This document shows, one piece after another, positions 2,032 to 36,493 of a stretch of DNA of 64,000 bases. The DNA lies in the sequence record NC_022968.1, one strand, 5' to 3'. Position 1 is the stretch's first letter; every line of letters starts with the position of its first letter. Position numbers and translations under genes: made by a program. Source of the DNA: Escherichia phage 4MG. The notes below the pieces were generated by a model, which made no database searches, was not told the origin of the DNA, and was given only the letters and a program-made list of their open reading frames with translations.

Positions 2032-2107
2032 TGGTGGGGCATGAAGGATTCGAACCTTCGACCTTCGGCTTAAGAGGCCGCTACTCTAACCGCTGAGTTA
2101 ATACCCC
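2032..2107 (-). tRNA. tRNA-Lys (anticodon CUU)
   Basis: Hand-folded 76-nt cloverleaf: acceptor GGGGUAU/AUGCCCC, D-stem ACUC/GAGU, anticodon loop CUCUUAA, T-arm GAAGG-UUCGAAU-CCUUC, encoded CCA. Confidence 0.8.
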
Positions 2108-2801: not shown

Positions 2802-2878
2802 TGGTAGTTCTGGCAGGGATTGAACCTGCGACCTCTTCCTTATGAGGGAAGCGCTCTAACCAACTAAGCTACAGAACC
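2802..2878 (-). tRNA. tRNA-Met (anticodon CAU; elongator Met or lysidine-type Ile2 cannot be distinguished)
   Basis: Hand-folded 77-nt cloverleaf: acceptor GGUUCUG/CAGAACU (G1-U72 wobble), D-stem GCUU/GAGC, anticodon stem CUUCC/GGAAG with loop CUCAUAA, T-arm GCAGG-UUCAAUC-CCUGC, encoded CCA. Confidence 0.8.
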
Positions 2879-4144: not shown

Positions 4145-5827
4145 TTACAGTTGAGCGGCTGCTCGTTCACGAATCGTTGTCAGGTCTTCATCGACAATCA
4201 GTTTGCCGTTGTAGAACACACGACGCAGTTCGTTATCGTCAGACTGTACATCTTCAAGCTGACAATTGTCAATCAGTTCTAGCTGACCAAACATATTGCG
4301 AACAACCTTCAGGAAACCTTTTGCAGACTTCTTACCGAGGTCAGTCTTAGGTTCTTTGACAACCATGATCTGCTGACCATCAATAACCGCACCAGTTGCC
4401 TTCACAGCCATACCCAGTGAATCGCGGGTTGTGTACTGGGTAGTAAAGGAACCAACACCGTACACGATATTGCTGGATGCAAAGCCTTTATCTTTCAGAC
4501 GTTCAAAGATGTCTTTTGCACGAGCAACAGTGATAGAGTCACCGTAGATCAGGCCAACATGACTATCCAGAACTTTGTAACCCTTGGAGTTAACTTCACC
4601 ACCAAAGATTTCCCACAGACACTGGATTGCACCTTTGACTTCATGGTCTTGCAGATCGGAAGGCTCAAGATCAAGGTAATCCGTATCTTCATCGAATTCG
4701 ATGTTGTAATACTTACCTTTGACTGATACAACTTCACCTTTCTCGCTTTCCCATGCTGCGTCTTTGGCTTCAGACAGCGTTTCGAAATCACCAATATAAC
4801 GATACCCCGCAATGATATGTTCCGGAATGCCTGAATCAGGACGGAACACAACACGACCGTCACGAGCCATGATTTCTTCTTTCAGAATCAGTGCTGCACG
4901 GGTAATAATCGCCCAGAAGTCATAGCTGTCTGCTACGTAGGAAACAAAACCTTTCGGGAAAATTTCCGTGATGTAGCGTTTCAGGAATTCAACTTCAGCC
5001 AGGAAACGCAGTTCATCCAGGGACAAATCAGGATTTTCAGTTTTCAGGCGACCGACGATAAAGCCAATGTTAGTTGTTGCAACACTGTGTTCTGATGCAG
5101 GAATAGAACCAGCAACGAACTTACCTTTCATGTTGTAATAACGGTTCGCATACAGAATCGCAGGAATGGTATCTGTACCCATTGAGTTGATCAGTTGACC
5201 AAACTCACTCTGTGCCGCGTCGTGAGTACCAGATTCACCGCGATAAGCGAAGCAGTGGTTCTGGAACGGAACATGCAGGTTGTTATCACAAGTTTCGGCA
5301 GCGTATGCTTCAGACAGTTTGCGATACTGCCAGAAGGTAGTTGCAGTTGTGATGGTTTTCCATGTCTCTGCGGAGATCACGCTTTCCAGGAAGTTCGGCA
5401 ACCAGTAAAAATCAGGGTGCGTGTTCTGAATGGTGAACAGCGGAACCTGTACCGGGGACAGAGTGCCTTCAGGAATCGAACGGATTTCCAGTGGCAGGTA
5501 ACCAAGGTCATGCAGCTTTTCAAAGCCCCAGGTTTCAACCATGTCCGGGCCGATGCTCAGTTCACAAATTTCTTTGTACTGTGCGATAGCCGCTTTCTTT
5601 TTCATTTTGAAAAAGTTTTCGTTGAACAGGTCGATCAGGAACCATTTGATGAAACCTTGCAAGCCAGCCATCATCACACGCTGATCGTTATCAGCGAAGT
5701 GAATGAAGTGCTTTGCATTGCGTGGTGTCATGTTGTCCTGAACAATTTCAGAACGTCGGTCATACATGGAGATGTGTGAAGGTTTGTAAAAGTCAGCGAA
5801 TACGAGTGGGCTTTCTTTATGCAGCAT
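4145..5827 (-). CDS. nicotinamide phosphoribosyltransferase (NAMPT) family protein; candidate nicotinamide ADP-ribose transferase of an NAD+ reconstitution pathway
   Basis: 560-aa track ORF with AAGGAGA SD; NAMPT motif set FADFYKPSH, PLEIRSIPEGT, FTIQNTHPDFYWLPNF, AYRGESG, ASEHSVATT, VADSYDFW, FRPDSGIP. Confidence 0.88.
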   Translation of the reverse strand: MLHKESPLVFADFYKPSHISMYDRRSEIVQDNMTPRNAKHFIHFADNDQRVMMAGLQGFIKWFLIDLFNENFFKMKKKAAIAQYKEICELSIGPDMVETWGFEKLHDLGYLPLEIRSIPEGTLSPVQVPLFTIQNTHPDFYWLPNFLESVISAETWKTITTATTFWQYRKLSEAYAAETCDNNLHVPFQNHCFAYRGESGTHDAAQSEFGQLINSMGTDTIPAILYANRYYNMKGKFVAGSIPASEHSVATTNIGFIVGRLKTENPDLSLDELRFLAEVEFLKRYITEIFPKGFVSYVADSYDFWAIITRAALILKEEIMARDGRVVFRPDSGIPEHIIAGYRYIGDFETLSEAKDAAWESEKGEVVSVKGKYYNIEFDEDTDYLDLEPSDLQDHEVKGAIQCLWEIFGGEVNSKGYKVLDSHVGLIYGDSITVARAKDIFERLKDKGFASSNIVYGVGSFTTQYTTRDSLGMAVKATGAVIDGQQIMVVKEPKTDLGKKSAKGFLKVVRNMFGQLELIDNCQLEDVQSDDNELRRVFYNGKLIVDEDLTTIRERAAAQL

Positions 5828-5880
5828 GTTTTGTTTCTCCTTTGTGTGTTTTGATGGGGTGATTCTACACCCCGTTTCGT

Positions 5881-6414
5881 TTAGATGTCAAGTGAAAAAT
5901 CTAAAGATTTAGATTCTTCTGTTACAACCGTTGTTTCTTTAACCAGACGACAGCCTTTCACCTTGATTTCTTTGGCTGGTGACCACTTAGTCGCACGGAT
6001 ATAGAATGTGTTTGCACGAATAACCATGAACCGGGCTACATCTTCAGGTGGTTCCTCGTTAATAAAAATCGCAACACTTTCGTATGCAGGCCACTTCATA
6101 GGGTTTTCATCGGTAACATCGGAATGTATACCATTACCGTTGTTAGTGCGACCCGGTGTAGGCCAGATAGTACAAGGTCGATAGCAGGCGTGGTCATCAG
6201 GAACCTGAATAACGTGATTTTCTAACCACGAGCAAATTTTTTCCAGGTCAAAATCATAATGGTCTTCTTTCAGGTCTTCAATATCTGTACGATATTCAGC
6301 CCCAACACCACACTCACCGATTTGCCCGGTAATATGAGCGCACATGTCACGCTCAAAGTTTCCTGCGTATGAGTCAGTATCGACAACAAAAATAAAACGA
6401 GTTGATTCAGTCAT
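5881..6414 (-). CDS. hypothetical protein (177 aa) embedded between the NAMPT-like and Prs-like genes
   Basis: Track ORF; stop/start abuts 6414-7214; no motif recognised (no Nudix box, no P-loop). Confidence 0.5.
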   Translation of the reverse strand: MTESTRFIFVVDTDSYAGNFERDMCAHITGQIGECGVGAEYRTDIEDLKEDHYDFDLEKICSWLENHVIQVPDDHACYRPCTIWPTPGRTNNGNGIHSDVTDENPMKWPAYESVAIFINEEPPEDVARFMVIRANTFYIRATKWSPAKEIKVKGCRLVKETTVVTEESKSLDFSLDI

Positions 6415-7214
6415 TAAAAATTCTCCGTCCAGTCATGGTATGCGTAGATTTCATCAACCCCGCCATCGAGGATGATTTGTTTCCCGAATGAGAAAATGCC
6501 GTGCGTAACGTAAAGGATAACACGTTTTGCACCATTCTCTTTCAGGGCTTTAGCCAGGGCGATGAAGGTACGACCACCATCACAGATATCATCGACGACA
6601 ACGCATTCGCGTCCTTCAACATCACCAAAGATTGCTGTCCCCGTAATTTCGTTTGTTTTCAGGTCACGAACCTTACCAGCTTCAACCAGAGGGAGTCGCA
6701 TACGGTCGGCAACCTTCTGTGCCTTCTTGCGAGCGCCTGCGTCTGGTGCAACAATGGTCACATCTTTCCCGGCAAGTTGATCATGGAATTCTGCAACAAG
6801 AATCTCTTGTCCACGAATCTGAACATTGTCCAGCAGTGCAGCAGAAACATCACTGTGTGGGTCATCAACAATCACTTTGTCGAAGCCAAGCGAGTTGACG
6901 AGGTTTGCAAAAACCTTGATAGATAGTGACTGTCCAGGTTGCATCACGCGATCCTGACGGGCATACGGGATGTATGGCAGGTGCAGGGTAAACTCAGCAT
7001 GGTTATGCAGCCCTTCAAGACGGGAACATGCATCCACCAACATAGCTAATGCCATGACATCGGTGGAGTTTTTGATTTTTGCAGTGATATCGACGAAACC
7101 AATACCGCCTTTTGGGGCATGTTTCAGATCAATCTCAACCTGTTCCTCACCACCCTTGAAGGTGAAGTGGTTAACAGGCACTTCCAGTTTGTTCAAGCGT
7201 AATTCAATACTCAT
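6414..7214 (-). CDS. ribose-phosphate pyrophosphokinase (Prs) family protein; candidate ADP-ribose pyrophosphokinase
   Basis: 266-aa track ORF, AGGAGA SD; Prs motifs PYIPYARQDR and VVDDICDGGRTF, GAKRV; shorter than cellular Prs. Confidence 0.88.
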   Translation of the reverse strand: MSIELRLNKLEVPVNHFTFKGGEEQVEIDLKHAPKGGIGFVDITAKIKNSTDVMALAMLVDACSRLEGLHNHAEFTLHLPYIPYARQDRVMQPGQSLSIKVFANLVNSLGFDKVIVDDPHSDVSAALLDNVQIRGQEILVAEFHDQLAGKDVTIVAPDAGARKKAQKVADRMRLPLVEAGKVRDLKTNEITGTAIFGDVEGRECVVVDDICDGGRTFIALAKALKENGAKRVILYVTHGIFSFGKQIILDGGVDEIYAYHDWTENF

Positions 7215-8803: not shown

Positions 8804-9039
8804 GCAGACTTTCAAAGCTTCACAGACGAAAGAACATGCTGAAAGAAAAGCAGAAAAATATCACCGCAACTTTCCAAGTGTGCCGTGAAGCTATGAAGGC
8901 AAATCTGATAACGCCTTCACAGAGGCAGATTATCCGTGATATACTCCGGCCTGTGCTGCACGACCTGGAGGGCGAGGTTCGTGATGTTTTATGCCACATT
9001 CAAGAAGAACTTGAAAAATTAAATCAGGAGAATACATGA
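8800..9039 (+). CDS. hypothetical protein (79 aa)
   Basis: Track ORF; coupled start. Confidence 0.45.
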   Translation: MSRLSKLHRRKNMLKEKQKNITATFQVCREAMKANLITPSQRQIIRDILRPVLHDLEGEVRDVLCHIQEELEKLNQENT

Positions 9040-9629
9040 TCGACCACGTTACATCAGACACGCATTGGTGGCACACCAATATTCTGGGTTTTCCCTCGTG
9101 TGATAAATTCCGGAAAAACCTGTACGGTCCAAAGGAAGTCCGTGAAAGTCTGTATGCCATGAATGCTGGCATGATTGAAATCTGGAATAAGCACGTCAAA
9201 CCAGATGATGTCGTAGCACACCTCGGTGATTTCGTGATTGCTTACGGACGCTACATGGAGCCTCGCGTTCGTGACATCTTGGAAAAGATCAACGGAAAGA
9301 TCATTCTGGTTGGTGGAAACCATGACAACCGAGATACGAAACGTATCTTCCGTGAGTTTGGTCACGAAGTTGTTGATTATAAAGAGATTAACTTCAGCAC
9401 TGGAAAAGAGAAGGTGCATGTGTGTATGTCTCACTATCCGTTTGCATCGTGGAATAAAGCTCACCACGGGTCAGTTATGCTGCACGGTCATAGCCACGGC
9501 TCCTATACAGCCCCTGGTGGACGTATTCTGGATGTGGGTTGGGATGTACATGGTCGTCCTCTGACGATGCGTGAAGCCGTCCTGATGTGCCTTGAAAAAC
9601 CAATTTACACTGCTGATCACGGAGAATAA
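9036..9629 (+). CDS. calcineurin-like metallophosphoesterase (candidate RNA/DNA-end phosphatase)
   Basis: Track ORF 197 aa; motifs HLGDFV, GGNHDNRD, HGHSHG typical of metallophosphatases. Confidence 0.7.
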   Translation: MIDHVTSDTHWWHTNILGFPSCDKFRKNLYGPKEVRESLYAMNAGMIEIWNKHVKPDDVVAHLGDFVIAYGRYMEPRVRDILEKINGKIILVGGNHDNRDTKRIFREFGHEVVDYKEINFSTGKEKVHVCMSHYPFASWNKAHHGSVMLHGHSHGSYTAPGGRILDVGWDVHGRPLTMREAVLMCLEKPIYTADHGE

Positions 9630-9630
9630 T

Positions 9631-9987
9631 ATGCACAACAAAGTACGTAATTTCTTACCTAAGAAAACATCTAAGTCTTTTTATGCTACGATACACATTG
9701 CTGGGGATCTGGAATCAGCAAGACCATTGCTCCGTCAATGGACTATGCGTGGTGCTTGTGTACAACTAGTCGGGTGTGATTACATCTACACTGGCGGCTC
9801 TGAACGGGGTATGACAGTTCGCATCATGCAGTATCCTCGTTTTGAACGACCGGAGCACGAGATCCTTGAAATGGCGGTTGAACTTGCTAACTTTTTAGCT
9901 CAGGAACTCTGCCAGATCAGTTTCAGCATTGAAACTCCTTACAATACAACGTATTACCAAGCAGAAGGTTACGAAAAGCGATCATGA
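9631..9987 (+). CDS. hypothetical protein (118 aa)
   Basis: ATG after GGAG SD; frame of track ORF. Confidence 0.4.
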   Translation: MHNKVRNFLPKKTSKSFYATIHIAGDLESARPLLRQWTMRGACVQLVGCDYIYTGGSERGMTVRIMQYPRFERPEHEILEMAVELANFLAQELCQISFSIETPYNTTYYQAEGYEKRS

Positions 9988-10187
9988 AAATTCACAACAT
10001 AACCAAGGACAGGATTCATTTCATAATGGATTCAGGGGCTTACGGTTCAATTTCAAAGGTGGATGCCATGAAGTTTCTGTATGCTTCAAATATTCCTCAG
10101 GCAAAGCTTGACTCCCGTTCAGGAGAGTGTATTATTGACTCTATTACGAATACACAAGAACTGTGGGAGATATATCATGAAATTTAA
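9984..10187 (+). CDS. hypothetical protein (67 aa)
   Basis: Track ORF; coupled start. Confidence 0.4.
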   Translation: MKIHNITKDRIHFIMDSGAYGSISKVDAMKFLYASNIPQAKLDSRSGECIIDSITNTQELWEIYHEI

Positions 10188-11097
10188 CGTAGATGATCTG
10201 GTTGCTAAAAAGCTGGTAACCAAAAAGACTTACACCGAAGGCCCGTTCGCGGGTCTGTCTGTACTGAAATATAAGAACAATGTGTTCTGGGATAACCTGT
10301 GGCACACAGATGCGCGTCTGCTTGAGTGCCGTGGCATGGTTGTTGATGCAGAGGACAACGTTGTTATCTGGCCTTTCACGAAGATTTTCAATCGCTTCGA
10401 GAACAACACTGATGTCCCACAGGACAAGTTGGTGTGCGTACCTCGTAAAGTCAATGGCTTTATGGCAGCAATGAGTGTTTACAATGGTGAAGTAATTGTG
10501 TCTACCACAGGAACACTTGATTCTGAGTTTGCACAAATGGCAAAAGATAAGATCACTGGTTCCATGCCTGAAGGGATGCTTGACTATTTCGTGAAGAATG
10601 CTGGACCTTGCACACTTATCTTTGAAATATGTGATGAGAGTGATCCCCACATTGTCGCAGAAGAAGCGGGTGCTTATCTGATTGGTTGCCGGGTCCACTT
10701 AAGTGGTGGTATGCTTCCAGAGTGGGACCTTGATAGAGTTGCAAATCGTTATGGTTGGAAACGTGCTGACTGGGACAACATGATCTTCAGCGATGTTGTT
10801 AAGGCTTCCAAGTCAGTTAATCATGAAGGTTTTGTTGTTCGTGATGTTGACACCAATGAGCTACTGCTGAAAATTAAGTCTCCACATTACCTGGCGAAGA
10901 AGTTCCTGATGCGTGGTAGCCAGAACAAGTGGGACCTGATTTGGGACAACCCGAAAGAAGCCAAAAAACGTATCGACGAAGAGTTCTACGAACTTCTTGA
11001 CTGGCTGCGCTGGGCTTACGAAAAAGATGAGTGGGCGGCTAAGGACTCTCAGTATCGTCGTATGATTATTGAAAAATATTTTGAGGATCGCAAATGA
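10177..11097 (+). CDS. RNA ligase-like nucleotidyltransferase (Rnl2-like)
   Basis: 306 aa; covalent nucleotidyltransferase motifs KVNG (motif I), NHEGFVVRD (motif IV), LKIKSPHY (motif V). Confidence 0.55.
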   Translation: MKFNVDDLVAKKLVTKKTYTEGPFAGLSVLKYKNNVFWDNLWHTDARLLECRGMVVDAEDNVVIWPFTKIFNRFENNTDVPQDKLVCVPRKVNGFMAAMSVYNGEVIVSTTGTLDSEFAQMAKDKITGSMPEGMLDYFVKNAGPCTLIFEICDESDPHIVAEEAGAYLIGCRVHLSGGMLPEWDLDRVANRYGWKRADWDNMIFSDVVKASKSVNHEGFVVRDVDTNELLLKIKSPHYLAKKFLMRGSQNKWDLIWDNPKEAKKRIDEEFYELLDWLRWAYEKDEWAAKDSQYRRMIIEKYFEDRK

Positions 11098-11330
11098 CAC
11101 TCATGTCAATCAAGAACAAACTTGACCGGGCTGTTTCCATAATTACCAGACTTATCATTGGGTTATCTGTGTTTATCTTCTTATTTGCACTGATAATCTT
11201 TGTGAATTGGGTTATCGAAACTCTGGGTGGTAAAGTAATATTCGGTGGAATTCTGCTCATCATTGCGGTGATTGGCTGTTATGGTGTTGGATGTTCCATC
11301 TACCCACACAAAGAAAAGGGTGAAAAATGA
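11094..11330 (+). CDS. small membrane protein (78 aa)
   Basis: Track ORF; two hydrophobic helices. Confidence 0.45.
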   Translation: MTLMSIKNKLDRAVSIITRLIIGLSVFIFLFALIIFVNWVIETLGGKVIFGGILLIIAVIGCYGVGCSIYPHKEKGEK

Positions 11331-11671
11331 TCATCTGGCTTGATGACTTGAGAGACCCAAAAGACTACGGGTATCCTGATGCCTTGTGGTTCAAGACCTC
11401 TCAGAAGTTTATGGATTTTCTTGATAATCGGTCAAAGTTCTATCGTTATGTCACAGAGTGGCATTTTGATAATGACCTAGGTGAAGATTCAGAAAAGGAG
11501 GGCTATGACTGCCTACTGGCCTTGGAAGAGAAGCTTGTGTATGGGAAACTTCCTGTGCATGATGCTAAACTCTATGTCCATACGTCTAACCCTTCTGCGG
11601 CACAAAAGTTCATGCTTGCAAAAGAGAGCTTCTTGAAGTATCGTATCACGATCTTAAGAAACAATTACTGA
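11327..11671 (+). CDS. hypothetical protein (114 aa)
   Basis: Track ORF; coupled start. Confidence 0.45.
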   Translation: MIIWLDDLRDPKDYGYPDALWFKTSQKFMDFLDNRSKFYRYVTEWHFDNDLGEDSEKEGYDCLLALEEKLVYGKLPVHDAKLYVHTSNPSAAQKFMLAKESFLKYRITILRNNY

Positions 11672-11680
11672 GGAGAAGAG

Positions 11681-12088
11681 ATGGAAAAGACTCTGATCAT
11701 CCTGCGTGGTGTGTCTGGTGCTGGTAAGTCTACAGTAGCAGATATGCTGGCAGAGGATTTGTGGCCTGTCTATGAAGCAGATAAATTCCACTACACAGAA
11801 GATGGCGTGTACGACTGGAAACCTGAAAACATGCAGGCTGCACACGCATGGTGTCAGTCAGAGGTCAAAGATATGATGGGGTGGAATATCAGCAGGATCA
11901 TCGTATCTAACACCTCTACCAGTGAAAAAGAACTGAAGCCGTATCTTGATCTCGCAGCGGAGAACGGGTATCGTGTCATCAGCTTGGTGGTAGAAAACCG
12001 TCATGGCAATGACTCCATTCACAGCGTTCCGCAGGAAACCCGCGATGCTCAAGAGCGTCGTCTGCGTAACTCATTGAAATTACAGTAA
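11681..12088 (+). CDS. P-loop kinase, polynucleotide 5'-kinase-like
   Basis: 135 aa; Walker A GVSGAGKST at N-terminus; sits between RNA ligase-like and Sir2-like genes. Confidence 0.55.
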   Translation: MEKTLIILRGVSGAGKSTVADMLAEDLWPVYEADKFHYTEDGVYDWKPENMQAAHAWCQSEVKDMMGWNISRIIVSNTSTSEKELKPYLDLAAENGYRVISLVVENRHGNDSIHSVPQETRDAQERRLRNSLKLQ

Positions 12089-12098
12089 GGGGAAACAA

Positions 12099-12875
12099 TT
12101 GAGGCGTTTAATTGTTATTAGTGGTGCAGGCTTCTCTGCTGAAAGCGGTGTTCGTACATTCCGTACTGATACAGACTCCGGAAAGGCTTTGTGGGATGAG
12201 TACGACCTTGAAGAGGTCTGTAATATCCATGCTTTCCGTGGTAATTTCTATCACAAAACGCACATGTTTTATAACAAGCGTCGTGTAGAACTGCAAACTG
12301 TGCATCCGAATGCTGCACATATGCGTGTTGCTGAGTGGTATAAAAACTACCCAAAACAGGTTGTTAATCTGACGACAAACGTAGATGACCTGCTGGAACG
12401 TGCTGGTGTTCCTAAGGAAGATACTCTGTATATCCACGGATATCTGAAAGAACTTCGGTATAAACTTCACGAAGATTCTGAAGAGCAGTTAGTTGACATT
12501 GGTTACAATGAAGTAGATCCTGATGAATTTCACTGGTGCAAACCAAATGTGGTCTTCTTTGGTGAGGCTGCTCCAGCATATAACGACCTATACTCAACCC
12601 TAGATAGCCTGACATCTGAAGACATGGTGATTGTTGTTGGATGCTCAAACACAGTTATCAACTTCAACTGGGAGCTTTTCCCAGCATCAAGGATGGGTAC
12701 TAAGATTGTTGTGGTTAACCCTAATGTTCGCTACGATGAACAGTTGATGTACGAAGACGCTGGTGTTGTTGTATACCGAACTGGTGCTGTAGATGCGTTC
12801 AGCAACCCTGGTCTCATCAAAATGGTTGAGGATCACCTTGAAGGTAAAACCTCATTGCAGAAGAAGGAGAAATAA
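12099..12875 (+). CDS. Sir2-family (sirtuin-like) NAD+-dependent protein
   Basis: 258 aa, TTG start after AAGGGG SD; GAGFSAESGVRTFR NAD-binding signature, YIHGYL, VVGCSNTV, VVVNPN; no Cys4 zinc module. Confidence 0.7.
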   Translation: MRRLIVISGAGFSAESGVRTFRTDTDSGKALWDEYDLEEVCNIHAFRGNFYHKTHMFYNKRRVELQTVHPNAAHMRVAEWYKNYPKQVVNLTTNVDDLLERAGVPKEDTLYIHGYLKELRYKLHEDSEEQLVDIGYNEVDPDEFHWCKPNVVFFGEAAPAYNDLYSTLDSLTSEDMVIVVGCSNTVINFNWELFPASRMGTKIVVVNPNVRYDEQLMYEDAGVVVYRTGAVDAFSNPGLIKMVEDHLEGKTSLQKKEK

Positions 12876-14179
12876 TGTCAATTAGTTTAGACACACCAAC
12901 ACTATACGCCATTAACAAGGACGGATCGTATCAAGTTTGGAATGTAACCACAGAAGGTGATGAGGTTGTCGTTTCTTTCGGTAAGGAAAATGGAAAGATT
13001 CAACAAAAGCGCACCAAGTGTGAAATGAAAAACATTGGTCGTTCCAATGAAACCACCGCTGAGTTCCAGGCCGTCCTGGAGGCCCGGTCTAAGTGGGAGA
13101 AACAGGTCCGTTTAGGTTATCGTGAGACCAAAGAGGAGTTACAGACGGAAGAGAACTTCTCTCCTATGCTGGCACACGATGCGATCAAACGGTCAAAGTC
13201 AATCGTCTATCCTGCGTATATTCAGCCAAAGCTCGATGGTGTTCGTGCTCTTGTGACGCTTGACAAGGACGGCATCCCGGTGTTTAATAGCCGTGGCAAC
13301 AAAACATACCCAGTACAGGGCGCTTTATTGCAGCAAGTTAAAGAACTTGCAGAGCACACAGGGTTTGACAAGTTCGATGGTGAACTGTATATTCATGGTC
13401 TAAGCCTTCAGAAGATTGTTGCTTTGGCTAAGAAGTGGCGCACCCCTGAACAGATTGAAGCTGAGATCGAGAAAGACTATCAGGCTGATATCAAGCGCTG
13501 TAATAAGGCGGTTGCCGATGGTGAGCATCTCTGGAAAGACTTTGATGGTAATGTGTGGGCTGTTTCCACGTATAAACCAGTAAAAGACGTTGACCGCTTC
13601 AGTGGTTATTCCAGTCTTGACCTAGAGTATCACATCTTTGACATTCCTGTGAATGCACAAAGCCCTTGGTACTCTTATGAGCATGATAAGACCAGACATC
13701 AAGATCTGTTGGTGGTTGCCGATGCTGTTGAATGTGAACTTAACGTACCTATGGTGAAAGTTATCCACGGGATCGTGGTATCTTCTGAAAGGGAAGTTAA
13801 ATGGTCCATCGGTAAATACATGGAGCAGGGATTTGAAGGTTCAATCATCCGAAACTTCAAAGGTGTCTACGAATTTGGTCAACGATCCTCTGATCTCCAA
13901 AAATGGAAACAGTTCCAGGATGGTGAGGCAAAAGTTCTTGATTCTGTAGAGGATAAGAACGGTGAGGGTGTCCTGCTCTGTGAAGAAAGAGATGGTACTC
14001 GATTCAACTGCAAAATGAAAGGCACTCACGCAGAGCGTTCTCAGGCGAAGATGCTATTGTTGGTTGGCGATTTCATCAACTTTACATTCCAGTCGCGTAC
14101 TGATGATGGTGTACCTCAGTTCCCGGTGGGGCAGAGTGTACGTGAACTTGATACATTAACATGGGAGCCAGTATACTAA
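12875..14179 (+). CDS. ATP-dependent DNA ligase
   Basis: 434 aa; motif I KLDGVR, motif IV-like FEGSIIR; size typical of phage ATP ligases. Confidence 0.8.
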   Translation: MSISLDTPTLYAINKDGSYQVWNVTTEGDEVVVSFGKENGKIQQKRTKCEMKNIGRSNETTAEFQAVLEARSKWEKQVRLGYRETKEELQTEENFSPMLAHDAIKRSKSIVYPAYIQPKLDGVRALVTLDKDGIPVFNSRGNKTYPVQGALLQQVKELAEHTGFDKFDGELYIHGLSLQKIVALAKKWRTPEQIEAEIEKDYQADIKRCNKAVADGEHLWKDFDGNVWAVSTYKPVKDVDRFSGYSSLDLEYHIFDIPVNAQSPWYSYEHDKTRHQDLLVVADAVECELNVPMVKVIHGIVVSSEREVKWSIGKYMEQGFEGSIIRNFKGVYEFGQRSSDLQKWKQFQDGEAKVLDSVEDKNGEGVLLCEERDGTRFNCKMKGTHAERSQAKMLLLVGDFINFTFQSRTDDGVPQFPVGQSVRELDTLTWEPVY

Positions 14180-14625
14180 TGGGATTCTATAAACGTAAAC
14201 CTCAGGAAGTTGAAGCACACGTATTCAACGGATCGAGCACAGGGGTTGGTCAGGTGACCAAGTGGATCGAGACCGGGGTCTGGAAAGACGCTGAGATCCA
14301 CACACGGGATATCCGAAATATGGACGTGAATGGCGTTCAGGCGTTTCCTGGTGATTACATAGTAAAAGTGGGTGACCAGTTCACAGCAATGTCCCCACAA
14401 GCGTTCAGCGACCTTTATGAGGCTGTTAGCGATGAAGATCGTCTTCCAGGGGACTACAAAGCAAAGAACGTAGTGATGGGTGACAAAGTTGAGATGTGGG
14501 GTAAAGACTACATCGTAAAAGGTCACAAAATCAGTGGTGACGATATTATCCTCACCCTTGATGACGGATCTAACATTCAGCTTCGCGGCGAAGCAACCGT
14601 GAAGGTAACAGAGGTACGTGCATAA
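14179..14625 (+). CDS. hypothetical protein (148 aa)
   Basis: ATG after GGGAG SD in frame of track ORF. Confidence 0.45.
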   Translation: MGFYKRKPQEVEAHVFNGSSTGVGQVTKWIETGVWKDAEIHTRDIRNMDVNGVQAFPGDYIVKVGDQFTAMSPQAFSDLYEAVSDEDRLPGDYKAKNVVMGDKVEMWGKDYIVKGHKISGDDIILTLDDGSNIQLRGEATVKVTEVRA

Positions 14626-14996
14626 TGATCTGGTACTGGCTGGCGCTCTTAGGCGCAACACTGGTCACAGGGGGCGGTATTTATACCGCTTTCCGTTTCC
14701 GGAAAGACAAGCTCGATGACTTTATCGACTGGATTCAGGGTAAAGTAAAACGACTGCTGTTGATTTGGGCTGTGGTGTTGGGCCTGGTAACGCTGGCCCT
14801 TACCAAACCGTTGTGGAACACCATGACCTGTCAGTTCGACGGCATGGCCTACAAGGTGAATACGTCTTATTCTTGGTATAAGAATGGGACATATGGCGAC
14901 AAATGCCTGTTCGTTGCTAAGAACGGTGCTCTTTTGCCATTACGAATTATCCGTGACCAACCGGAAGGTGATCACGCAACAGATGTAATTAATTAA
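14625..14996 (+). CDS. membrane protein (123 aa)
   Basis: Track ORF; two predicted TM helices. Confidence 0.45.
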   Translation: MIWYWLALLGATLVTGGGIYTAFRFRKDKLDDFIDWIQGKVKRLLLIWAVVLGLVTLALTKPLWNTMTCQFDGMAYKVNTSYSWYKNGTYGDKCLFVAKNGALLPLRIIRDQPEGDHATDVIN

Positions 14997-15005
14997 GGAG
15001 AATCA

Positions 15006-15695
15006 ATGAGTAAGGTTTACGAAACACTTTTAGCGATGACAAAACCAACAGATCTGTACGCATATGCGGAGCATGTTATCGAATGGAACCATGTTGCATA
15101 TCGTGCTCGCAATAATGTGGCAACACCATTCGATCTGCAATGGGGCTTTATTCGTGAAGAATTCAACGAACTCGTTGACGCACTCCGTGTTGGTGACCGT
15201 ATCGAAACTGTTGACGCTGCCTGTGATCTCTTTGTTGTAGCTTCATACGCTTGCCAGTTGAAGAGTCCTGAGTATCTTCGTGAAGCCTGTATTCCTTCAC
15301 CGACACTGACGTTCACTATTGGCGATCTTGAGCACAACCTGTATGGCAATATGCGAGACCCGGTTTATGTTCTTAAGCTGGTAACTGCATTATGTTATCG
15401 CCTTGATATTAATCTTGACTACAATATGCGACAGGTGTTACATTCAAACGATACCAAATACCCATATGTGCAAGATATCCTTGCCTTGTGGCCTGGTAAG
15501 GCGAAAGCCGAAGCTTTACGTCAAGAATGTAAGGCAATCGAAGATCGTTCCAATGGTCGTTATGAGGGTGTTGGTTTCCGCGAGGTAATTGATATCCGCA
15601 ACCCGGATGTTAAAGGTTCACGCCTTGTCTTCTTCGATAGAAACGGAAAAATCATGAAGCCAAGCACTTTCGAAAGTCCGAAAATTATTGCTTGA
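15006..15695 (+). CDS. mazG: MazG-like nucleoside triphosphate pyrophosphohydrolase
   Basis: 229 aa; EExxE-type motif REEFNELVDA followed by ETVDAACD. Confidence 0.55.
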   Translation: MSKVYETLLAMTKPTDLYAYAEHVIEWNHVAYRARNNVATPFDLQWGFIREEFNELVDALRVGDRIETVDAACDLFVVASYACQLKSPEYLREACIPSPTLTFTIGDLEHNLYGNMRDPVYVLKLVTALCYRLDINLDYNMRQVLHSNDTKYPYVQDILALWPGKAKAEALRQECKAIEDRSNGRYEGVGFREVIDIRNPDVKGSRLVFFDRNGKIMKPSTFESPKIIA

Positions 15696-15719
15696 CAATG
15701 GATAAGGGGTCTGTATAAT
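15692..15719 (+). promoter_or_regulatory. strong sigma70-like promoter TTGACA-N16-TATAAT
   Basis: Consensus hexamers read directly, 30 nt upstream of 15750 ORF; coordinates +/-2. Confidence 0.55.
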
Positions 15720-16592: not shown

Positions 16593-16756
16593 TGTTACTA
16601 AACCTGAAAGCGTCTACCTGGGAAAAGTTGCAGCACTTAGCGCGAGTTAAGAATAAGTCTGCTGCTGCCCTTGTAGCAAAAATTGTTGACGAACATGTTG
16701 ACGAGAAAGTAAAAACTACCTATAAAATTGAAGAGGAGAACCAAACCAATGCTTAA
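16592..16756 (+). CDS. ribbon-helix-helix-like small DNA-binding protein (54 aa)
   Basis: Not in track; TAATG coupling; N-terminal pattern LNLKASTWEKLQHLARVKNKSAAALVAKIV resembles Arc/CopG RHH fold. Confidence 0.4.
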   Translation: MLLNLKASTWEKLQHLARVKNKSAAALVAKIVDEHVDEKVKTTYKIEEENQTNA

Positions 16757-17639
16757 GAATATCAAACGTGTGATTTTTGCTGGCCTGATCGCTCTGGGTG
16801 CCGTTGGCCTGACTGGTTGTGAACGTGCAACTGTCCCGGCAGGTTATGTGGGTGTGAAGGTTGACCTGTATGGCGACGAAAAGGGTGTTCAGCAGCAGGA
16901 AGTGGGTGTTGGTAAATACTGGCTGACCTGGAACGAAGAAATCTATCAGTTCCCTACATTCAACCAGTTAAACAACTACGACCAACCGTTTAACTTCCAG
17001 ACCAAGGATTCTATGACGGTCTCTGCGAAGGTTGGTGTTGAGTATTACGTTGACCGCTCCAAGGTCACCAAGATCTTCCAGACCTACCGTAAAGGTGTTC
17101 AGGAAATCACTGATGTCAACATTCGTCAGAACATCTCTGATGCACTGATCAAAGAAGCGGGTACGATGGATATCGGTACGCTGGCTGGCGATGGTAAATC
17201 TCAGCTTCTGGATCGTGTGACGAAGACCCTGAAAGCGAAGCTTGACCCGATTGGTATCGTGATCGTGAAACTGTCTTACACTGATGATCTGCGTTATCCA
17301 CCACAGGTAACCGCATCCATCAACGCGAAGATCGAAGCGACTCAGAAAGCGCTGCTGCGTGAAAACGAAATCCAGCAGACCAAAGCTGAAGCTCAGAAAC
17401 AGATCGAAGCCGCTCGCGGTGAAGCTGAATCTAAGCGACTGCAAGCTCAGGGTGAGGCAGATGCTAAAGTAGCACTGGCAAAAGGTGAAGCAGAATCCAT
17501 CCAACTGCGTGGTGATTCTCTCCGCAAAAACCCAGAAATTATGCAACTGGAAGCGATCAACAAGTGGAACGGTGTGACCCCGGTCTATATGACCAGCGGT
17601 TCTCAGACCCCATTCGTTACCCTGCCAGCAGGTAAATAA
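16749..17639 (+). CDS. SPFH (band-7/prohibitin-like) domain lipoprotein
   Basis: 296 aa; lipobox LTGC after hydrophobic signal; SPFH-like core followed by long Ala/Glu/Gln coiled coil. Confidence 0.7.
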   Translation: MLKNIKRVIFAGLIALGAVGLTGCERATVPAGYVGVKVDLYGDEKGVQQQEVGVGKYWLTWNEEIYQFPTFNQLNNYDQPFNFQTKDSMTVSAKVGVEYYVDRSKVTKIFQTYRKGVQEITDVNIRQNISDALIKEAGTMDIGTLAGDGKSQLLDRVTKTLKAKLDPIGIVIVKLSYTDDLRYPPQVTASINAKIEATQKALLRENEIQQTKAEAQKQIEAARGEAESKRLQAQGEADAKVALAKGEAESIQLRGDSLRKNPEIMQLEAINKWNGVTPVYMTSGSQTPFVTLPAGK

Positions 17640-17908: not shown

Positions 17909-18415
17909 ATGAGAGTAACTGATCAGCATGTTTTCTTCTTCACTTATCGTGATATGTTCAGCAACCACTTTCGACAGATAATTCCTATTCGTTGTGGTGG
18001 CTATGAGTTCTTCACGGTGGAGCACTTTATGATGTTCCAAAAAGCAATGCTCTTTGATGACAAAGAGATTGCTGCACGTATTGCCACAGTTGATAATCCA
18101 AACGAGGCAAAAGCGCTGGGTCGTAAAGTCAGGGACTTTGACAACAGTGTTTGGGAAGAAAACAGAATGGACATTGTAACAAACGGTCTTGTTCTGAAAA
18201 TGAAGGCTAACCGCTCTATTCTGGAGTCTGCACTGACTCACAGAGATGCTGGGCGGCGATTTGTAGAGGCATCCCCGTATGATGCAATCTGGGGTGTAAA
18301 ACTGAATGAATATGATCCACGCATTGATGATCCTGCTAACTGGCAAGGTCTTAATCTTCTCGGTGAGTGCTGGGAAAGAGCAATTGATGTTGTGATCGCA
18401 GCTTCGTGGAGGTGA
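17909..18415 (+). CDS. NADAR-domain (YbiA-like) protein
   Basis: 168 aa; motifs MFSNHF, TVEHFMMFQKA, DAIWGV, GLNLLGECWERA matching the YbiA/NADAR pattern. Confidence 0.75.
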   Translation: MRVTDQHVFFFTYRDMFSNHFRQIIPIRCGGYEFFTVEHFMMFQKAMLFDDKEIAARIATVDNPNEAKALGRKVRDFDNSVWEENRMDIVTNGLVLKMKANRSILESALTHRDAGRRFVEASPYDAIWGVKLNEYDPRIDDPANWQGLNLLGECWERAIDVVIAASWR

Positions 18416-34596: not shown

Positions 34597-35276
34597 TGTC
34601 TGCGCCTTTGAAGAAGAAGGGGGAACGTAGGGATTATGACGTGTATGAGACACCAGAATGGGCTGTCACGGCCCTTTTGGATGTTATCCCTATCAACCCA
34701 CACTGGAAATATTTAGAGCCGTGTAGAGCGTCTGGGAGATTCTACAACCACATGCCAATAGGTTCAGCCTGGGGTGAAATCCGTCATGGTGTGGATTATC
34801 TCAACACAGAGTACAAGCATGTGGATTGTATCATCACAAACCCGCCTTATTCTTTGGCTCAGGAGTTCGTTACAAAGGCCCTTGAAGATGCGGATGTGGT
34901 AATTATGCTCCTCAGGTTAGGATTCCTTGAAAGCCAGATCCGGAACAAGTGGTGGCAGGACAATAAACCGTCCAGCCTGATGGTCTTATCACAAAGGCCT
35001 TCATTCACCGAAGACGGTAAGACTGATGGTTCTGGGTACGCTTACTTTGTGTGGGATAAGAAGAACCGCCTTAACCTTGAACCATTCTATTTCTTGGAGG
35101 GTCAAAGCGATGAGTGTCGCAAACAAGATGCGAGAGATCGCAAACAACGCAGAAAAGCAAACGCCAGCAGAAATGAAGGACATCTTCGAACAGATAGTGA
35201 GCGGGATAGCTCAGTGTGCGAGGAAGGGGATGTACGGGATGGGACTCTCAATGGACTTCCCGGTGGAGATGAGTGA
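34596..35276 (+). CDS. DNA methyltransferase (N6-adenine/N4-cytosine type)
   Basis: 226 aa; catalytic IITNPPY motif; C-terminal 55 aa look non-globular. Confidence 0.7.
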   Translation: MSAPLKKKGERRDYDVYETPEWAVTALLDVIPINPHWKYLEPCRASGRFYNHMPIGSAWGEIRHGVDYLNTEYKHVDCIITNPPYSLAQEFVTKALEDADVVIMLLRLGFLESQIRNKWWQDNKPSSLMVLSQRPSFTEDGKTDGSGYAYFVWDKKNRLNLEPFYFLEGQSDECRKQDARDRKQRRKANASRNEGHLRTDSERDSSVCEEGDVRDGTLNGLPGGDE

Positions 35277-35388
35277 TTACCTGCCTCATATTGTTGGGGA
35301 TCTTCGTAATGGAGGTTTCACAGTTGACATCATCGGATACCAGCCGACAATGCAAGGCACTTCGATAAACTTCTTTGTTACCTGGTAA
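35110..35388 (+). CDS. hypothetical protein (92 aa) overlapping 3' end of methyltransferase ORF
   Basis: ATG after GGAGGG SD; different frame from 34596-35276. Confidence 0.4.
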   Translation: MSVANKMREIANNAEKQTPAEMKDIFEQIVSGIAQCARKGMYGMGLSMDFPVEMSDYLPHIVGDLRNGGFTVDIIGYQPTMQGTSINFFVTW

Positions 35389-35393
35389 ATTAA

Positions 35394-35413
35394 CCCGCTT
35401 CGGCGGGTTTTTT
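35394..35413 (+). terminator. intrinsic terminator (CCCGCTTCGGCGGG + TTTTTT)
   Basis: UUCG tetraloop hairpin plus T-run right after stop at 35388. Confidence 0.6.
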
Positions 35414-35424
35414 CGTTTTTGTGC

Positions 35425-35453
35425 TTGACATCAATTTTACCGAGGATTATTAT
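35425..35453 (+). promoter_or_regulatory. sigma70-like promoter TTGACA-N17-TATTAT
   Basis: Hexamers read directly, just downstream of terminator; coordinates +/-2. Confidence 0.5.
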
Positions 35454-35474
35454 CTACCCAACAAAGGAGAACAC

Positions 35475-35747
35475 ATGAAATTTTTCATCTATTACCGACC
35501 ACTGGAAACGATTCGATTCAAAGAGTACATGGGTGACTTGATCCATCTCTCCACTGAAGAGAAAGAATATTCCCCGGATGGGAAAGTTTGGAAAATTAGA
35601 CGTTGCAATCGTCCACAGAGTGTGTATACTCGTTTAGTAAAGATGCTGGCACATGGTGGGATGGAGAGTGACATGGTTTACCCTCTTGACGGCAAACGGT
35701 CAGTAAGAGATCTTGTTAACTACATGAATAAATGGGAGAACAAATAA
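35475..35747 (+). CDS. hypothetical protein (90 aa)
   Basis: ATG after AAAGGAGAAC; frame of track ORF. Confidence 0.45.
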   Translation: MKFFIYYRPLETIRFKEYMGDLIHLSTEEKEYSPDGKVWKIRRCNRPQSVYTRLVKMLAHGGMESDMVYPLDGKRSVRDLVNYMNKWENK

Positions 35748-35965
35748 TGTCAAAACGCCTTACGAAAGAGCAAGCGATTATCATCACCGGGTTTACAGGG
35801 CGCACAGCTTGTGGTTTTAGCCTTTTTCACGAGGATGTTGAAAAGCGTCTTGGGCGTCCTGTTTGGACGCATGAGTTTGCCAACAAACAATTCTCTGAAG
35901 AGCTTCGCGATCTCTATCGTGAAGATTACCTGGCGATCTGTTACAGTGAGGAGGAAGCAGAATGA
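35747..35965 (+). CDS. hypothetical protein (72 aa)
   Basis: Coupled ATG in frame of track ORF. Confidence 0.4.
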   Translation: MSKRLTKEQAIIITGFTGRTACGFSLFHEDVEKRLGRPVWTHEFANKQFSEELRDLYREDYLAICYSEEEAE

Positions 35966-36351: not shown

Positions 36352-36493
36352 AAAATTTGAAGCGTGGTTCAATGAGAACTACCCTCATGTGACCGATCCA
36401 ATCACTCGTGCCATTGCTCACTGTGCGTGGGATGCCCGGTGGGAGCTTCTGGTTGAAGAATTCCGTGAAGTTCACGGGGAGAAACAAAAATGA
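36335..36493 (+). CDS. hypothetical small protein (52 aa)
   Basis: ATG after AAAAGGAG in frame of track ORF. Confidence 0.35.
   Translation: MALFDEKFEAWFNENYPHVTDPITRAIAHCAWDARWELLVEEFREVHGEKQK

Follow-up and report, generated by a model that had tools for sequence, protein, structure and literature searches.

A CobB-like, zinc-ligand-free sirtuin in an RNA-repair gene block of Escherichia phage 4MG: a candidate NAD-dependent remover of RNA phosphates

Escherichia phage 4MG (sequence record NC_022968.1) encodes a Sir2-type enzyme within the 64,000-nt stretch of DNA that we analysed, hereafter the window, and the question raised by this locus is what such an enzyme acts upon. As a discovery the gene is ordinary. 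The initial annotation had presented it as a fresh oddity, a view that we do not retain: the family is routinely annotated, and both its zinc-free finger (PMC5107563) and its gene neighbourhood (PMC9503650) are in print. The interest lies in its biochemistry, on which removal of a 2'-phosphate from RNA and deacylation of lysine are two concrete, mutually exclusive predictions; the initial annotation's functional proposal was a much broader one, covering ADP-ribosylation, deacylation and the processing of NAD-derived signals. We give the first of these, in which the sirtuin would be an NAD-dependent, Tpt1-like remover of RNA 2'/3'-phosphates, a probability of about 0.4, and place it slightly ahead of ordinary lysine deacylation; Iyer et al. 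2022 had already made this prediction in print (PMC9503650). Carriers of the gene include the model phage T5 and many therapeutic-candidate phages of Klebsiella, Salmonella and E. coli.

The ORF and the Sir2 motifs first quoted for it are all present in the sequence (Table 1): GAGFSAESGVRTFR at residues 9-22, YIHGYL (with H113), VVGCSNTV at 179-186 and VVVNPN (with N207). A Shine-Dalgarno sequence, AAGGGG, lies 6 nt to the 5' side of the start codon, and the stop codon overlaps the ATG of the DNA ligase gene as TAATG. PF02146 (SIR2), the sole Pfam family to match this single-domain protein, aligned over profile positions 1-178 of 180 (E=2.3e-23; 83.5 bits, cutoff 24), and PHROG 2162 matched with E=1.5e-111, so that the assignment is far beyond chance. 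The top NCBIfam models were those of CobB-type deacylases, at 47-118 bits against equivalog cutoffs of 221-395; NF001753 scored highest (118 bits, cutoff 243) and the CobB equivalog NF040867 reached 97 (cutoff 320). Since these scores fall far under every equivalog cutoff, the protein is not a CobB orthologue. It is acidic (pI 5.2), a property that does not discriminate, as the RNA and DNA ligases of the block are equally acidic (pI 5.4-5.5).

The initial annotation had proposed a fold search on a predicted structure as a check, and this search returned a sirtuin fold. In Foldseek, the AlphaFold (AF2) model (pLDDT 84.3, pTM 0.84) matched 285 PDB chains at E<=1e-3, with CobB as the top match (E=2e-17; TM 0.75/0.85, the latter normalised to CobB), and the top 50 structural matches were all CobB, Af-Sir2, SIRT5 or Sir2Tm deacylases. 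By sequence (HMMER), CobB was again closest (E=4e-20), followed by Af-Sir2 and SIRT5. Residue invariance was scored in 26 clade members at 59-86% identity, with 150 representatives as the broader set. The NAD-binding and catalytic set (GAGxS, F21-R22, N94, D96, H113) was invariant in the former and near-universal in the latter; the residues invariant in the clade are G9, A10, G11, S13, F21, R22, C41, Y58, R61, R62, N94, D96, H113, G114, F153, F154, E156, G181, S183 and N207. Judged by sequence and model, the gene product is a full-length Sir2-type enzyme, and almost certainly an active one; Pfam, PHROG and the model alike bear out the Sir2 fold and the NAD binding first ascribed to it.

With E. 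coli CobB (PDB 1S5P, 6RX*) the phage protein has in common 28% sequence identity, domain lengths, the N/D/H residues, the FYNxRR motif and the acyl pocket. The class III Tyr-x-x-Arg pair is present (F-Y58-N-K-R61-R62, as against FYNARR in CobB) and invariant in the clade, and the CobB pocket residues A76, Y92, I131, V162 and V187 correspond to C41, Y58, V95, L131 and V151, which are conserved or conservative swaps. Segment lengths are those of CobB, the active-site architecture shows no remodelling, and the FGE substrate loop is kept in the clade. In contrast to CobB, the phage protein has an invariant Cys41 in place of A76, a conserved D-I-G-Y hairpin motif and a C-terminal extension of ~50 residues; C41, at the pocket, and D133-x-G135-Y136, on the former zinc hairpin, are clade-specific invariants. 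The V-x-P peptide-staple proline is mostly lost in phage sirtuins. We rejected the idea that this loss tracks loss of zinc, the proline being ~40% conserved in both groups. The clade is phage-specific and descended from CobB/SIRT5-type (class III) sirtuins.

The protein had also been described as lacking the zinc module, which holds for the Cys4 set and not for the segment that bore it. In the HMMER alignment the CobB cysteines (RC...KCHCC) fall on Y121, F144, W146 and C147, the last being variable (C/V/A) in the clade; the ligands alone are gone. Matching its CobB counterpart in length, the ~40-residue segment was modelled with confidence (pLDDT 88-93) as a three-stranded sheet (114-122, 130-133 and 146-151). 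According to the model, the ribbon persists as a beta-hairpin module that is free of metal and held together by aromatic residues. About one-third of 137 family representatives have a Cys-free zinc segment, with at least 7 state changes on a neighbour-joining tree, and a zinc-free finger was noted in 2016 in the Sir2 of Vibrio schizoT4-like phages (Skliros et al., PMC5107563).

Sirtuin homologues occurred in 975 of 50,697 phage records (~2%), the top identity being 89.5%, and no identical protein is on record. Some relatives have a ~25-residue insertion after position 48. The Vequintavirinae-type orthologues, from Klebsiella phage DP (89.5%), KpS8 and Ro1 (80-86%), Enterobacter phage EC152 and Salmonella phage PVP-SE1 (gp109, ~75%), agree with the 4MG protein in length, motifs and the slot between P-loop kinase and ATP DNA ligase genes, and differ by sequence divergence only (top identity 86-89.5%). 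T5.102, which like PVP-SE1 gp109 carries a Sir2 annotation, and the other T5-like (Demerecviridae) sirtuins are ~62% identical, zinc-ligand-free and alike in the invariant residues. T5.102 likewise adjoins an RNA-repair-type phosphoesterase gene; unlike the 4MG gene, it shares a separate unit, running from promoter to terminator, with HAD_SAK_2 and a pair of DUF7415 genes, and in the T5 genome we found no homologue of RNA ligase, kinase, cREC, KptA or NARP1. The Sir2/CobB proteins of Vibrio schizoT4-like phages (KVP40, phiSt2, phiGrn1) belong to the same clade (40-44% identity, zinc-free finger), yet their locus consists of hypothetical genes and topoisomerase II, with a metallophosphoesterase 4 kb off. 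In the literature searched, neither T5.102 nor any Vequintavirinae sirtuin came with a functional study, a knockout or expression data, and no biochemical assay of any phage member of the family was found.

Table 1. Features of the 4MG window discussed in the text
Feature	Coordinates	Strand	Evidence or remark
NARP1-like NAD-reconstitution unit	4145..7214	-	Divergent from sirtuin block; Pfam
NAMPT-like/Namat-like gene	4145-5827	-	NAPRTase E=1.6e-27
177-aa ORF of NARP1-like unit	5881-6414	-	
Prs-like/Adps-like gene	6414-7214	-	Pribosyltran + Pribosyl_synth
Calcineurin-like metallophosphoesterase, candidate RNA-end/nucleotide phosphoesterase	9036..9629	+	PF00149 E=2.7e-6; PHROG 547 E=3e-50
Conserved protein, PHROG 4848	9592..9987	+	E=1.2e-48 from residue 14; true start probably near 9631
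T4 Rnl1-type RNA ligase	10183..11097	+	PHROG 562 E=3e-64; KxNG motif RKVNGF
cREC (cyclic-phosphate processing receiver-like) domain protein	11327..11671	+	PF20274 E=6.9e-18
Small P-loop kinase (AAA_33; polynucleotide-kinase-like)	11681..12088	+	PF13671 E=5e-8
Sirtuin (Sir2/CobB-like, class III-derived, zinc-ligand-free)	12099..12875	+	TTG start, 258 aa
ATP-dependent DNA ligase	12875..14179	+	PF01068 E=1.6e-11; PF14743 E=3.7e-7
MazG/PRA-PH-like pyrophosphatase, last gene of co-directional block	15006..15695	+	PF01503 E=1.8e-4
NADAR gene	17909-18415		Pfam

Pfam and PHROG agree with the initial annotation that the sirtuin gene lies between RNA-repair genes and that of a DNA ligase. The metallophosphoesterase gene, the first recognisable one of the block, accompanies the cassette in related phages. 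The ORF that follows it gave no match in a Pfam scan and is conserved in related loci (L001-L007). The Rnl1-type ORF is open from 10081, with its likely start as tabulated; PHROG 562 bears the label 'RNA ligase and tail fiber protein attachment catalyst', a homologue is annotated as RNA ligase 1 in phage EC152, and the protein had no Pfam match and no PDB sequence match. The cREC protein, whose function is a predicted one, had 59 phage homologues, every one single-domain, and the small kinase matched PHROG 2071 (E=3e-57) and PHROG 505, polynucleotide kinase (E=7e-8). Within the co-directional block (~8.1 to 15.7 kb) there was no convincing terminator; a perfect TTGACA-16-TATAAT sequence follows the MazG-like gene at 15692-15719. 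The NAD+ rebuilding module and the NADAR protein that the initial annotation mentioned are likewise recognisable, the former as a NAMPT-like/Prs-like pair which adjoins the cassette in two phage groups and is a possible recycler of sirtuin by-products.

Taken as a whole, the locus has the composition of the type 2 sirtuin neighbourhood of Iyer et al. 2022 (PMC9503650, section 3.7.3; 'Escherichia phage V5 / Proteus phage Mydo'), in which a sirtuin is found with a T4-like RNA ligase, cREC, a nucleotide kinase and a MazG-family protein, and sometimes with a calcineurin-like phosphoesterase; in 4MG all of these, the phosphoesterase included, are encoded on one strand between 9036 and 15695. Across phages, RNA-end-processing neighbours accompany the sirtuin in ~8 independent lineages. 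The Vequintavirinae-type cassette recurs in ~13 loci, and HAD_SAK_2 stands beside the sirtuin in ~33 T5-like loci and on its opposite side in Erwinia phage KEY. A 607 kb megaphage has Rnl1 two genes upstream of a 40%-identical sirtuin, a T4-like contig (L091) has RlaP-Sir2-NADAR with Sir2 and NADAR adjacent, another locus (L094) has overlapping Sir2 and PTH2 genes, and a 355 kb Asteriusvirus has Sir2, Nudix and cREC consecutively. Sir2 also overlaps a NadR-like NMNAT/kinase gene (L095), precedes a nucleoside 2-deoxyribosyltransferase-like gene (L056), or lies 4 kb downstream of an Acb2/Tad1-hairpin gene (ECO340P2). RNA-repair genes were absent from the sirtuin contexts of the Vibrio schizoT4-like phages and of two further loci (L092, L096). 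To see whether cREC/Rnl1 cassettes devoid of a sirtuin carry KptA in its stead, we searched with E. coli KptA; neither the window nor ~90 related loci yielded a homologue, and PTS_2-RNA was absent from the 25 commonest Pfam families among 127 neighbours of 13 distant cREC loci.

The reactions of sirtuins and of Tpt1 are alike, in that a nucleophile attacks C1'' and attack by the 2''-OH then gives a 1'',2''-cyclic species. The Tpt1 mechanism is treated in PMC6097658 and PMC6333775, and some Tpt1 enzymes also take off terminal 2'/3'-phosphates (PMC6573784). In our narrowly favoured proposal, which follows Iyer et al. 2022 and our own survey of gene contexts, NAD+ would be spent on freeing damaged RNA of a phosphate that blocks its repair, the RNA being probably tRNA that anticodon nucleases of the host have cleaved. 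The cut would leave a 2',3'-cyclic phosphate and a 5'-OH; the former would be opened by cREC or the metallophosphoesterase, and the 5' end phosphorylated by the P-loop kinase. The leftover 2'- (or 3'-) phosphate would then attack C1'' of sirtuin-bound NAD+ with release of nicotinamide, and the ribose 2''-OH, activated by H113, would attack the phosphorus. Rnl1 or a host ligase would seal the RNA, the ADPR by-product may be processed by cREC, Nudix or HAD enzymes, with the NARP1-like pair as a possible means of remaking NAD+ from ADPR and nicotinamide. The conserved catalytic set, the tight gene block and the recurrence of RNA-end-processing neighbours, with different partners in distant phages, argue for this scheme. 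The recurring partner of the sirtuin is a phosphoesterase (cREC twice, HAD, Metallophos), which fits a phosphate-bearing substrate or product and not O-acyl-ADPR; and, as KptA/Tpt1 homologues are absent from the window and the ~90 loci, the phage leaves the 2'-phosphate step otherwise uncovered. The proposed likeness to Tpt1/KptA comprises NAD+ dependence, two steps by way of 1'',2''-cyclic ADP-ribose, and a pathway with RNA ligase, cyclic phosphodiesterase and kinase. Tpt1/KptA, however, has the ADP-ribosyltransferase fold (PTS_2-RNA), and the phage protein has an unrelated Rossmann fold, so that it is at most a functional analogue of Tpt1/KptA and not a member of that family.

Several considerations count against removal of RNA phosphates. 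The narrow lysine tunnel would be awkward for an RNA 2'-phosphate, and the CobB-like acyl pocket is retained with no extra basic residues specific to the clade among its 26 aligned members. T4-type Rnl1 leaves no 2'-phosphate at the junction that it seals, and end phosphates could be hydrolysed by metallophosphoesterases or HAD phosphatases. T5 keeps its sirtuin without an RNA ligase, and linkage to the cassette is not obligatory, since ~149 kb phages keep a cREC-Metallophos-Rnl1-kinase-ligase-MazG cassette that lacks the sirtuin, the latter lying ~32 kb away. We know of no sirtuin that acts on nucleic acid, and we regard it as rather unlikely that the phage protein is the first, with Tpt1-like action on the 2'/3'-phosphates of nuclease-damaged tRNA. 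If it were, sirtuin chemistry would reach nucleic acids, the NAD+ arms race would gain a link to the repair of tRNA by phages, and RNA repair would be NAD-neutral even in NAD+-depleting hosts. A less likely variant, to which only the Sir2-PTH2 pair points, is removal of GNAT-toxin N-acetyl groups from aminoacyl-tRNA.

The principal alternative to RNA phosphate removal, to which we assign a somewhat lower and still tentative likelihood, is that the protein is an NAD+-dependent lysine deacylase like CobB and SIRT5, possibly preferring acidic acyl groups (succinyl, malonyl) by virtue of Y58/R61. An acyl-lysine would enter the hydrophobic tunnel, its carbonyl oxygen would attack NAD+ C1', and H113 would drive the formation of 2'-O-acyl-ADPR and free lysine. 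Early in infection, such an enzyme might rid proteins of the host or the phage of inhibitory acyl groups, candidate targets being the translation apparatus, aminoacyl-tRNA synthetases, Acs and enzymes with reactive catalytic lysines, among them the flanking RNA and DNA ligases; phages would then edit the host acylome. All of the closest sequence and structure relatives and the top NCBIfam models are deacylases, as described above, and the invariant Tyr/Arg pair, the conserved acyl-pocket positions and the FGE loop point the same way. A cellular gene beside that of a lipoate-protein ligase belongs to the nearest Cys4 outgroup, and the sirtuin persists in T5 and the ~149 kb phages unlinked to RNA ligase. 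Deacetylation of the Acs type was proposed by Skliros et al. 2016 (PMC5107563), and a passage in PMC3102665 gives a precedent for cooperation with a ligase, that of mycobacterial Sir2 with Ku/LigD. Yet the NCBIfam scores are not those of a CobB orthologue, the clade-specific invariants imply a changed specificity, the staple proline is mostly lost, and the hosts already possess CobB. Furthermore, the product of a deacylase carries no extra phosphate, which leaves unexplained why in unrelated phages the sirtuin is repeatedly paired with cREC, HAD_SAK_2 or Nudix on the one hand and Rnl1, RlaP or PTH2 on the other.

A distinctly improbable third explanation places the protein in the NAD/ADPR arms race, where it would act on a small molecule or transfer ADP-ribose and serve counter-defence or host take-over and not repair. 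It might catalyse glycosyl (base) exchange, pass ADP-ribose to a metabolite, nucleotide or NAD-capped RNA, or turn over NAD+ so as to feed or drain ADPR-derived signals, with the adjacent phosphoesterase, Nudix and NAD-synthesis genes completing the pathway. In its favour, the window has a NARP1-like pair 5-7 kb upstream of the sirtuin and, 5 kb downstream of it, NADAR, to which are added the NADAR, NadR-like, Nudix-cREC, deoxyribosyltransferase-like and Acb2/Tad1-hairpin neighbours found elsewhere; accessory genes around NARP1 have repeatedly proved, in the NARP literature, to process ADPR derivatives, and CobB was first described by a phosphoribosyl-transfer activity, according to a passage citing that work in PMC9503650. 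Against it, consumption of NAD+ runs contrary to the phage's own investment in NAD reconstitution, no sirtuin partner features in the NARP papers, and the proposal names no specific substrate. Conservation extends to the whole deacylase-type catalytic set with its acyl pocket, which counts against a simple NADase, as such an enzyme would not need the pocket, and similarity to NADase-type SIR2 is lacking. The NADAR and NAD-rebuilding genes have anti-defence roles of their own, established by experiment in related phages, those of AdfN against DarTG1 (PMC11825919) and of NARP1. Their presence can be understood without a sirtuin.

Defence SIR2 NADases (ThsA, DSR1/2, SIR2-HerA, SIR2-pAgo) are NAD+-binding members of the Sir2 superfamily that often have no zinc ribbon. 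The kinship with them that the initial annotation implied is rejected: no PADLOC family matched at E<=1, neither SIR2_2 nor any such protein in the structural top 50 was found, and, unlike those systems (SLOG, HerA, APAZ-pAgo, TIR, large C-terminal sensor), the phage sirtuin has no fused or adjacent sensor or partner, and its gene belongs to the core of the early region in virulent phages. SirTM, the Macro-linked ADP-ribosylating sirtuin, was rejected as well, there being no Macro domain among the scanned neighbours and no Macro-like fold in the 177-aa ORF of the NARP1-like unit. The long members of the family (311-528 aa) were considered for extra fused domains, and these proved to be tandem Sir2 or WG repeats only.

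The sirtuin ORF was confirmed as a frame of 258 codons with a TTG start, a Shine-Dalgarno sequence that we judged to be good (AAGGGG, 6 nt to the 5' side of the start) and a stop codon overlapping the start ATG of the gene that follows (TAATG), and it contains all of the sirtuin motifs quoted in the initial annotation. Matches to Pfam PF02146 (E=2.3e-23; score 83.5 bits, cutoff 24; positions 1-178 of the 180 in the profile) and to PHROG 2162, 'Sir2 (NAD-dependent deacetylase)' (E=1.5e-111), are far above chance and assign the predicted protein to the sirtuin family. The nearest solved structure by sequence was E. coli CobB (E=4e-20), with Archaeoglobus Sir2 and SIRT5 next, and the CobB-type models of NCBIfam, whose cutoffs are 221-395 bits, scored no more than 47-118; judged by these scores, the phage protein is CobB-derived, yet no CobB orthologue. 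The AlphaFold2 model, for which 26 clade sequences formed the alignment input, was confident (pLDDT 84.3, pTM 0.84) except in the cofactor-binding loop, which is mobile in apo sirtuins. A Foldseek search with this model, a check proposed earlier, returned the sirtuin fold with CobB as best match (E=2e-17; TM 0.75 normalised to the query and 0.85 to CobB), and all of the top 50 matches were CobB, Af-Sir2, SIRT5 or Sir2Tm deacylases. No PADLOC profile matched the protein at E<=1, and a defence-type SIR2 identity was therefore ruled out.

Residues G9, A10, G11, S13, F21, R22, N94, D96, H113, G114, F153, F154, E156, G181, S183 and N207 were invariant among clade members (59-86% identity), and these catalytic and NAD residues were near-universal among 150 wider-family representatives. 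The class III Tyr/Arg pair was also invariant (FY58-N-K-R61-R62 in the phage protein, FYNARR in CobB). Acyl-specificity positions were taken from engineered CobB variants, A76, I131 and V162 being read from differences among PDB sequences and Y92 and V187 from PDB titles; they align with phage C41, V95, L131, Y58 and V151, respectively, so that the acyl pocket is conserved by alignment, with an invariant Cys in place of A76. By these residues, the phage sirtuin is probably catalytically competent.

The protein had been described as lacking the zinc module, which proved correct for the ligands only. In the HMMER alignment, the CobB cysteines (RC...KCHCC) correspond to phage Y121, F144, W146 and C147; the clade has Y, I or V at 121, F or Y at 144 and C, V or A at 147, with W146 conserved in at least 90% of members, so that the metal-ligand set is absent. 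The segment itself, however, is ~40 residues long, the length found in CobB, and was modelled as three strands with pLDDT 88-93, from which we conclude that the module is retained as a predicted metal-free hairpin with an aromatic mini-core. In the wider family, sampled as its 150 best representatives at 50% identity, Cys4 and Cys-free versions were both present, and an I-G-Y motif within the segment was conserved in both alike. On a neighbour-joining tree of the 137 representatives of at least 200 aa, classed by segment Cys as three or more (n=87) or at most one (n=50), parsimony gave at least 7 changes of Cys state, and the query's group was purely Cys-free (at least 16 representatives).

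The gene order bears out the placement of the sirtuin between RNA-repair genes and DNA ligase, and the NAD+ rebuilding module and the NADAR gene that had been reported for this phage are likewise present. Promoter-like sites at 8067 and 15692 flank the sirtuin block, and no convincing terminator was found between them. The second is a perfect sigma-70 consensus (TTGACA, 16 nt, TATAAT) directly 3' of the MazG-like gene, and by its sequence is predicted to start the next transcription unit and hence to mark the 3' boundary of the block. The Prs-like and NAMPT-like genes of the divergent unit to the 5' side match the published NARP1 Adps/Namat pair.

Features of the window in and around the sirtuin block
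Feature	Position	Strand	Evidence
tRNA-Lys(CTT)	2032-2107	-	
tRNA-Met(CAT)	2802-2878	-	
Prs-like / uncharacterised ORF / NAMPT-like	7214-4145	divergent	
Metallophosphoesterase	9036-9629	+	Pfam, PHROG matches
PHROG 4848 gene, no named function	9592-9987	+	PHROG match
Rnl1-type RNA ligase	10183-11097	+	PHROG 562, E=3e-64
78-aa ORF, hydrophobic, no family	11094-11330	+	ORF call
cREC	11327-11671	+	PF20274
P-loop kinase	11681-12088	+	Pfam, PHROG
Sirtuin	12099-12875	+	ORF call, Pfam
ATP-dependent DNA ligase	12875-14179	+	Pfam
Two genes without named function	14161-14996	+	ORF call, PHROG search
MazG/PRA-PH-like protein	15006-15695	+	Pfam
Sigma-70 promoter consensus	15692-15719	+	
SPFH/Band_7	16728-17639	+	
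NADAR	17909-18415	+	E=6e-34

The window derives from a Vequintavirinae-like myovirus (megablast identity 83-85% to Enterobacter phage EC152, a Seunavirus, and E. coli phage LNA4). Orthologues annotated 'Sir2-like' or 'NAD-dependent deacetylase' occur in PVP-SE1 (gp109), SSE121, KpS8 and dozens more, and of 50,697 phage records searched by tblastn, 975 had a homologue (best, Klebsiella phage DP, 89.5%). The carriers form five groups: Vequintavirinae, Justusliebigvirus-like phages of ~149 kb, T5-like Demerecviridae (T5.102 among them), ~250 kb Vibrio schizoT4-like phages and a 355 kb Asteriusvirus. Skliros et al. (2016; PMC5107563) named T5 and Klebsiella phage JD001 as carriers of Sir2/CobB homologues, described the viral finger domain as without zinc ligands, and proposed Acs-type deacetylation. 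Iyer et al. (2022; PMC9503650) defined a separate viral sirtuin clade and proposed KptA/Tpt1-like removal of RNA 2'-phosphate; their 'Escherichia phage V5 / Proteus phage Mydo' neighbourhood of sirtuin, T4-like RNA ligase, cREC, nucleotide kinase and MazG, to which a calcineurin-like phosphoesterase is in some cases added, is exactly the locus seen here. The sirtuin annotation, the zinc-free peculiarity and the contextual hypothesis are already known, and our literature search found no experimental test of either proposal. The interest lies in a gene that about 2% of sequenced phages carry, among them T5, and in two sharp, cheaply testable predictions.

Our leading, still tentative, reading is a Tpt1-like removal of phosphate from RNA, a substrate that we infer (probability roughly 0.4). 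In a survey of 57 viral sirtuin loci, 29 cREC loci and, in addition, contigs from distant representatives, neighbours with roles in RNA-end processing recurred in many lineages, with partners that differ among phages. The full cassette accompanies the sirtuin in about 13 Vequintavirinae-type loci, some rearranged; HAD_SAK_2, a 'Swiss army knife RNA repair' phosphatase (E=4e-20), lies beside it in about 33 T5-like loci, and on the opposite flank in Erwinia phage KEY; a 607 kb megaphage contig has Rnl1 two genes 5' of a sirtuin only 40% identical; a T4-like contig (L091) has the order RlaP-Sir2-NADAR; and the overlap of Sir2 with PTH2 on L094, described below, belongs with these contexts. In the 355 kb jumbo phage vB_EcoM_JNE01, an Asteriusvirus, three consecutive genes annotated 'hypothetical' (L101:3965-5598; 34918-36551) encode the sirtuin, a Nudt16-like Nudix hydrolase (E=1.7e-19) and cREC (E=6e-23), by these matches a putative compact NAD/ADPR or RNA-end processing set. 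The most constant partner is a phosphoesterase (cREC, HAD, Metallophos or Nudix), which is easier to reconcile with a substrate or product that carries phosphate than with O-acyl-ADPR. Also in favour, the phage is without its own KptA, no KptA homologue being found in the window or any surveyed locus, and the sirtuin and Tpt1 reactions run formally parallel courses.

Against Tpt1-like activity, the linkage of sirtuin and cassette is broken in the ~149 kb phages, in which cREC-Metallophos-Rnl1-kinase-ligase-MazG adjoins the NARP1-like pair without a sirtuin (L068, L070-L072) and the sirtuin is found elsewhere on these contigs, at a distance of about 32 kb, among unnamed genes (L008-L010, L039). 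An Acb2/Tad1-hairpin gene (anti-CBASS/anti-Thoeris sponge-like) is located 4 kb 5' of a sirtuin of this group (L060:1940-2215). The absence of an RNA ligase from T5 also counts against it: homologues of Rnl1, P-loop kinase, cREC, KptA and NARP1 went undetected across the T5 genome, where unit T5.100-T5.107, with its own promoter and terminator, contains the sirtuin and HAD_SAK_2 together with two DUF7415 genes (T5.106 and T5.107, of two repeats each, constant companions of the sirtuin in T5-like phages). The HAD_SAK_2 gene is T5.105 (L059:7143-7649; NC_005859 57588-58094; PF18143, E=4e-20), and its RefSeq label, 'Sir2 (NAD-dependent deacetylase)', is wrong; the actual sirtuin is T5.102. Moreover, the hydrolytic phosphoesterases of the cassette could render an NAD-dependent step redundant, the active site and acyl pocket are CobB-like and unremodelled, no extra basic residues distinguish the clade, and we know of no sirtuin that acts on nucleic acid.

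Plain lysine deacylation, again with a substrate that we infer, is only slightly less probable: it accounts best for the sequence and structure, but worst for the gene contexts. Two metagenomic phage contigs hint at a possible connection with tRNA or with NAD, in that Cys-free sirtuins overlap the start of a PTH2 peptidyl-tRNA hydrolase gene (L094:6001-7100, with an AlkB-like gene nearby) and of a NadR-like NMN adenylyltransferase/kinase gene (L095:6001-7888); a nucleoside deoxyribosyltransferase-like gene is a further neighbour from NAD or nucleotide metabolism, and some further contexts were uninformative. A small-molecule, ADP-ribosyl-transfer or counter-defence role is unlikely, and the remaining probability falls to some other role. 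The data establish the identity of the sirtuin, its probable competence as an enzyme, the loss of its zinc ligands, its place in the operon and its distribution. The earlier interpretation is supported in part, with a functional proposal that was too broad.

The NADAR of related BASEL Vequintavirinae counters DarTG1 by experiment (PMC11825919), and that of the window is probably a counterpart of this AdfN(Bas60)-type anti-DarTG1 ADP-ribosylglycohydrolase. The SPFH/Band_7 gene lies just 5' of it, both being 3' of the sirtuin block, and a Band_7 ... Sir2-NADAR trio reappears on the unrelated contig L091. The two tRNA genes form the edge of an array that comprises ~25 tRNA genes in related phage EC152, and large tRNA sets were seen in the sirtuin-bearing groups that we looked at, T5 and Vequintavirinae.
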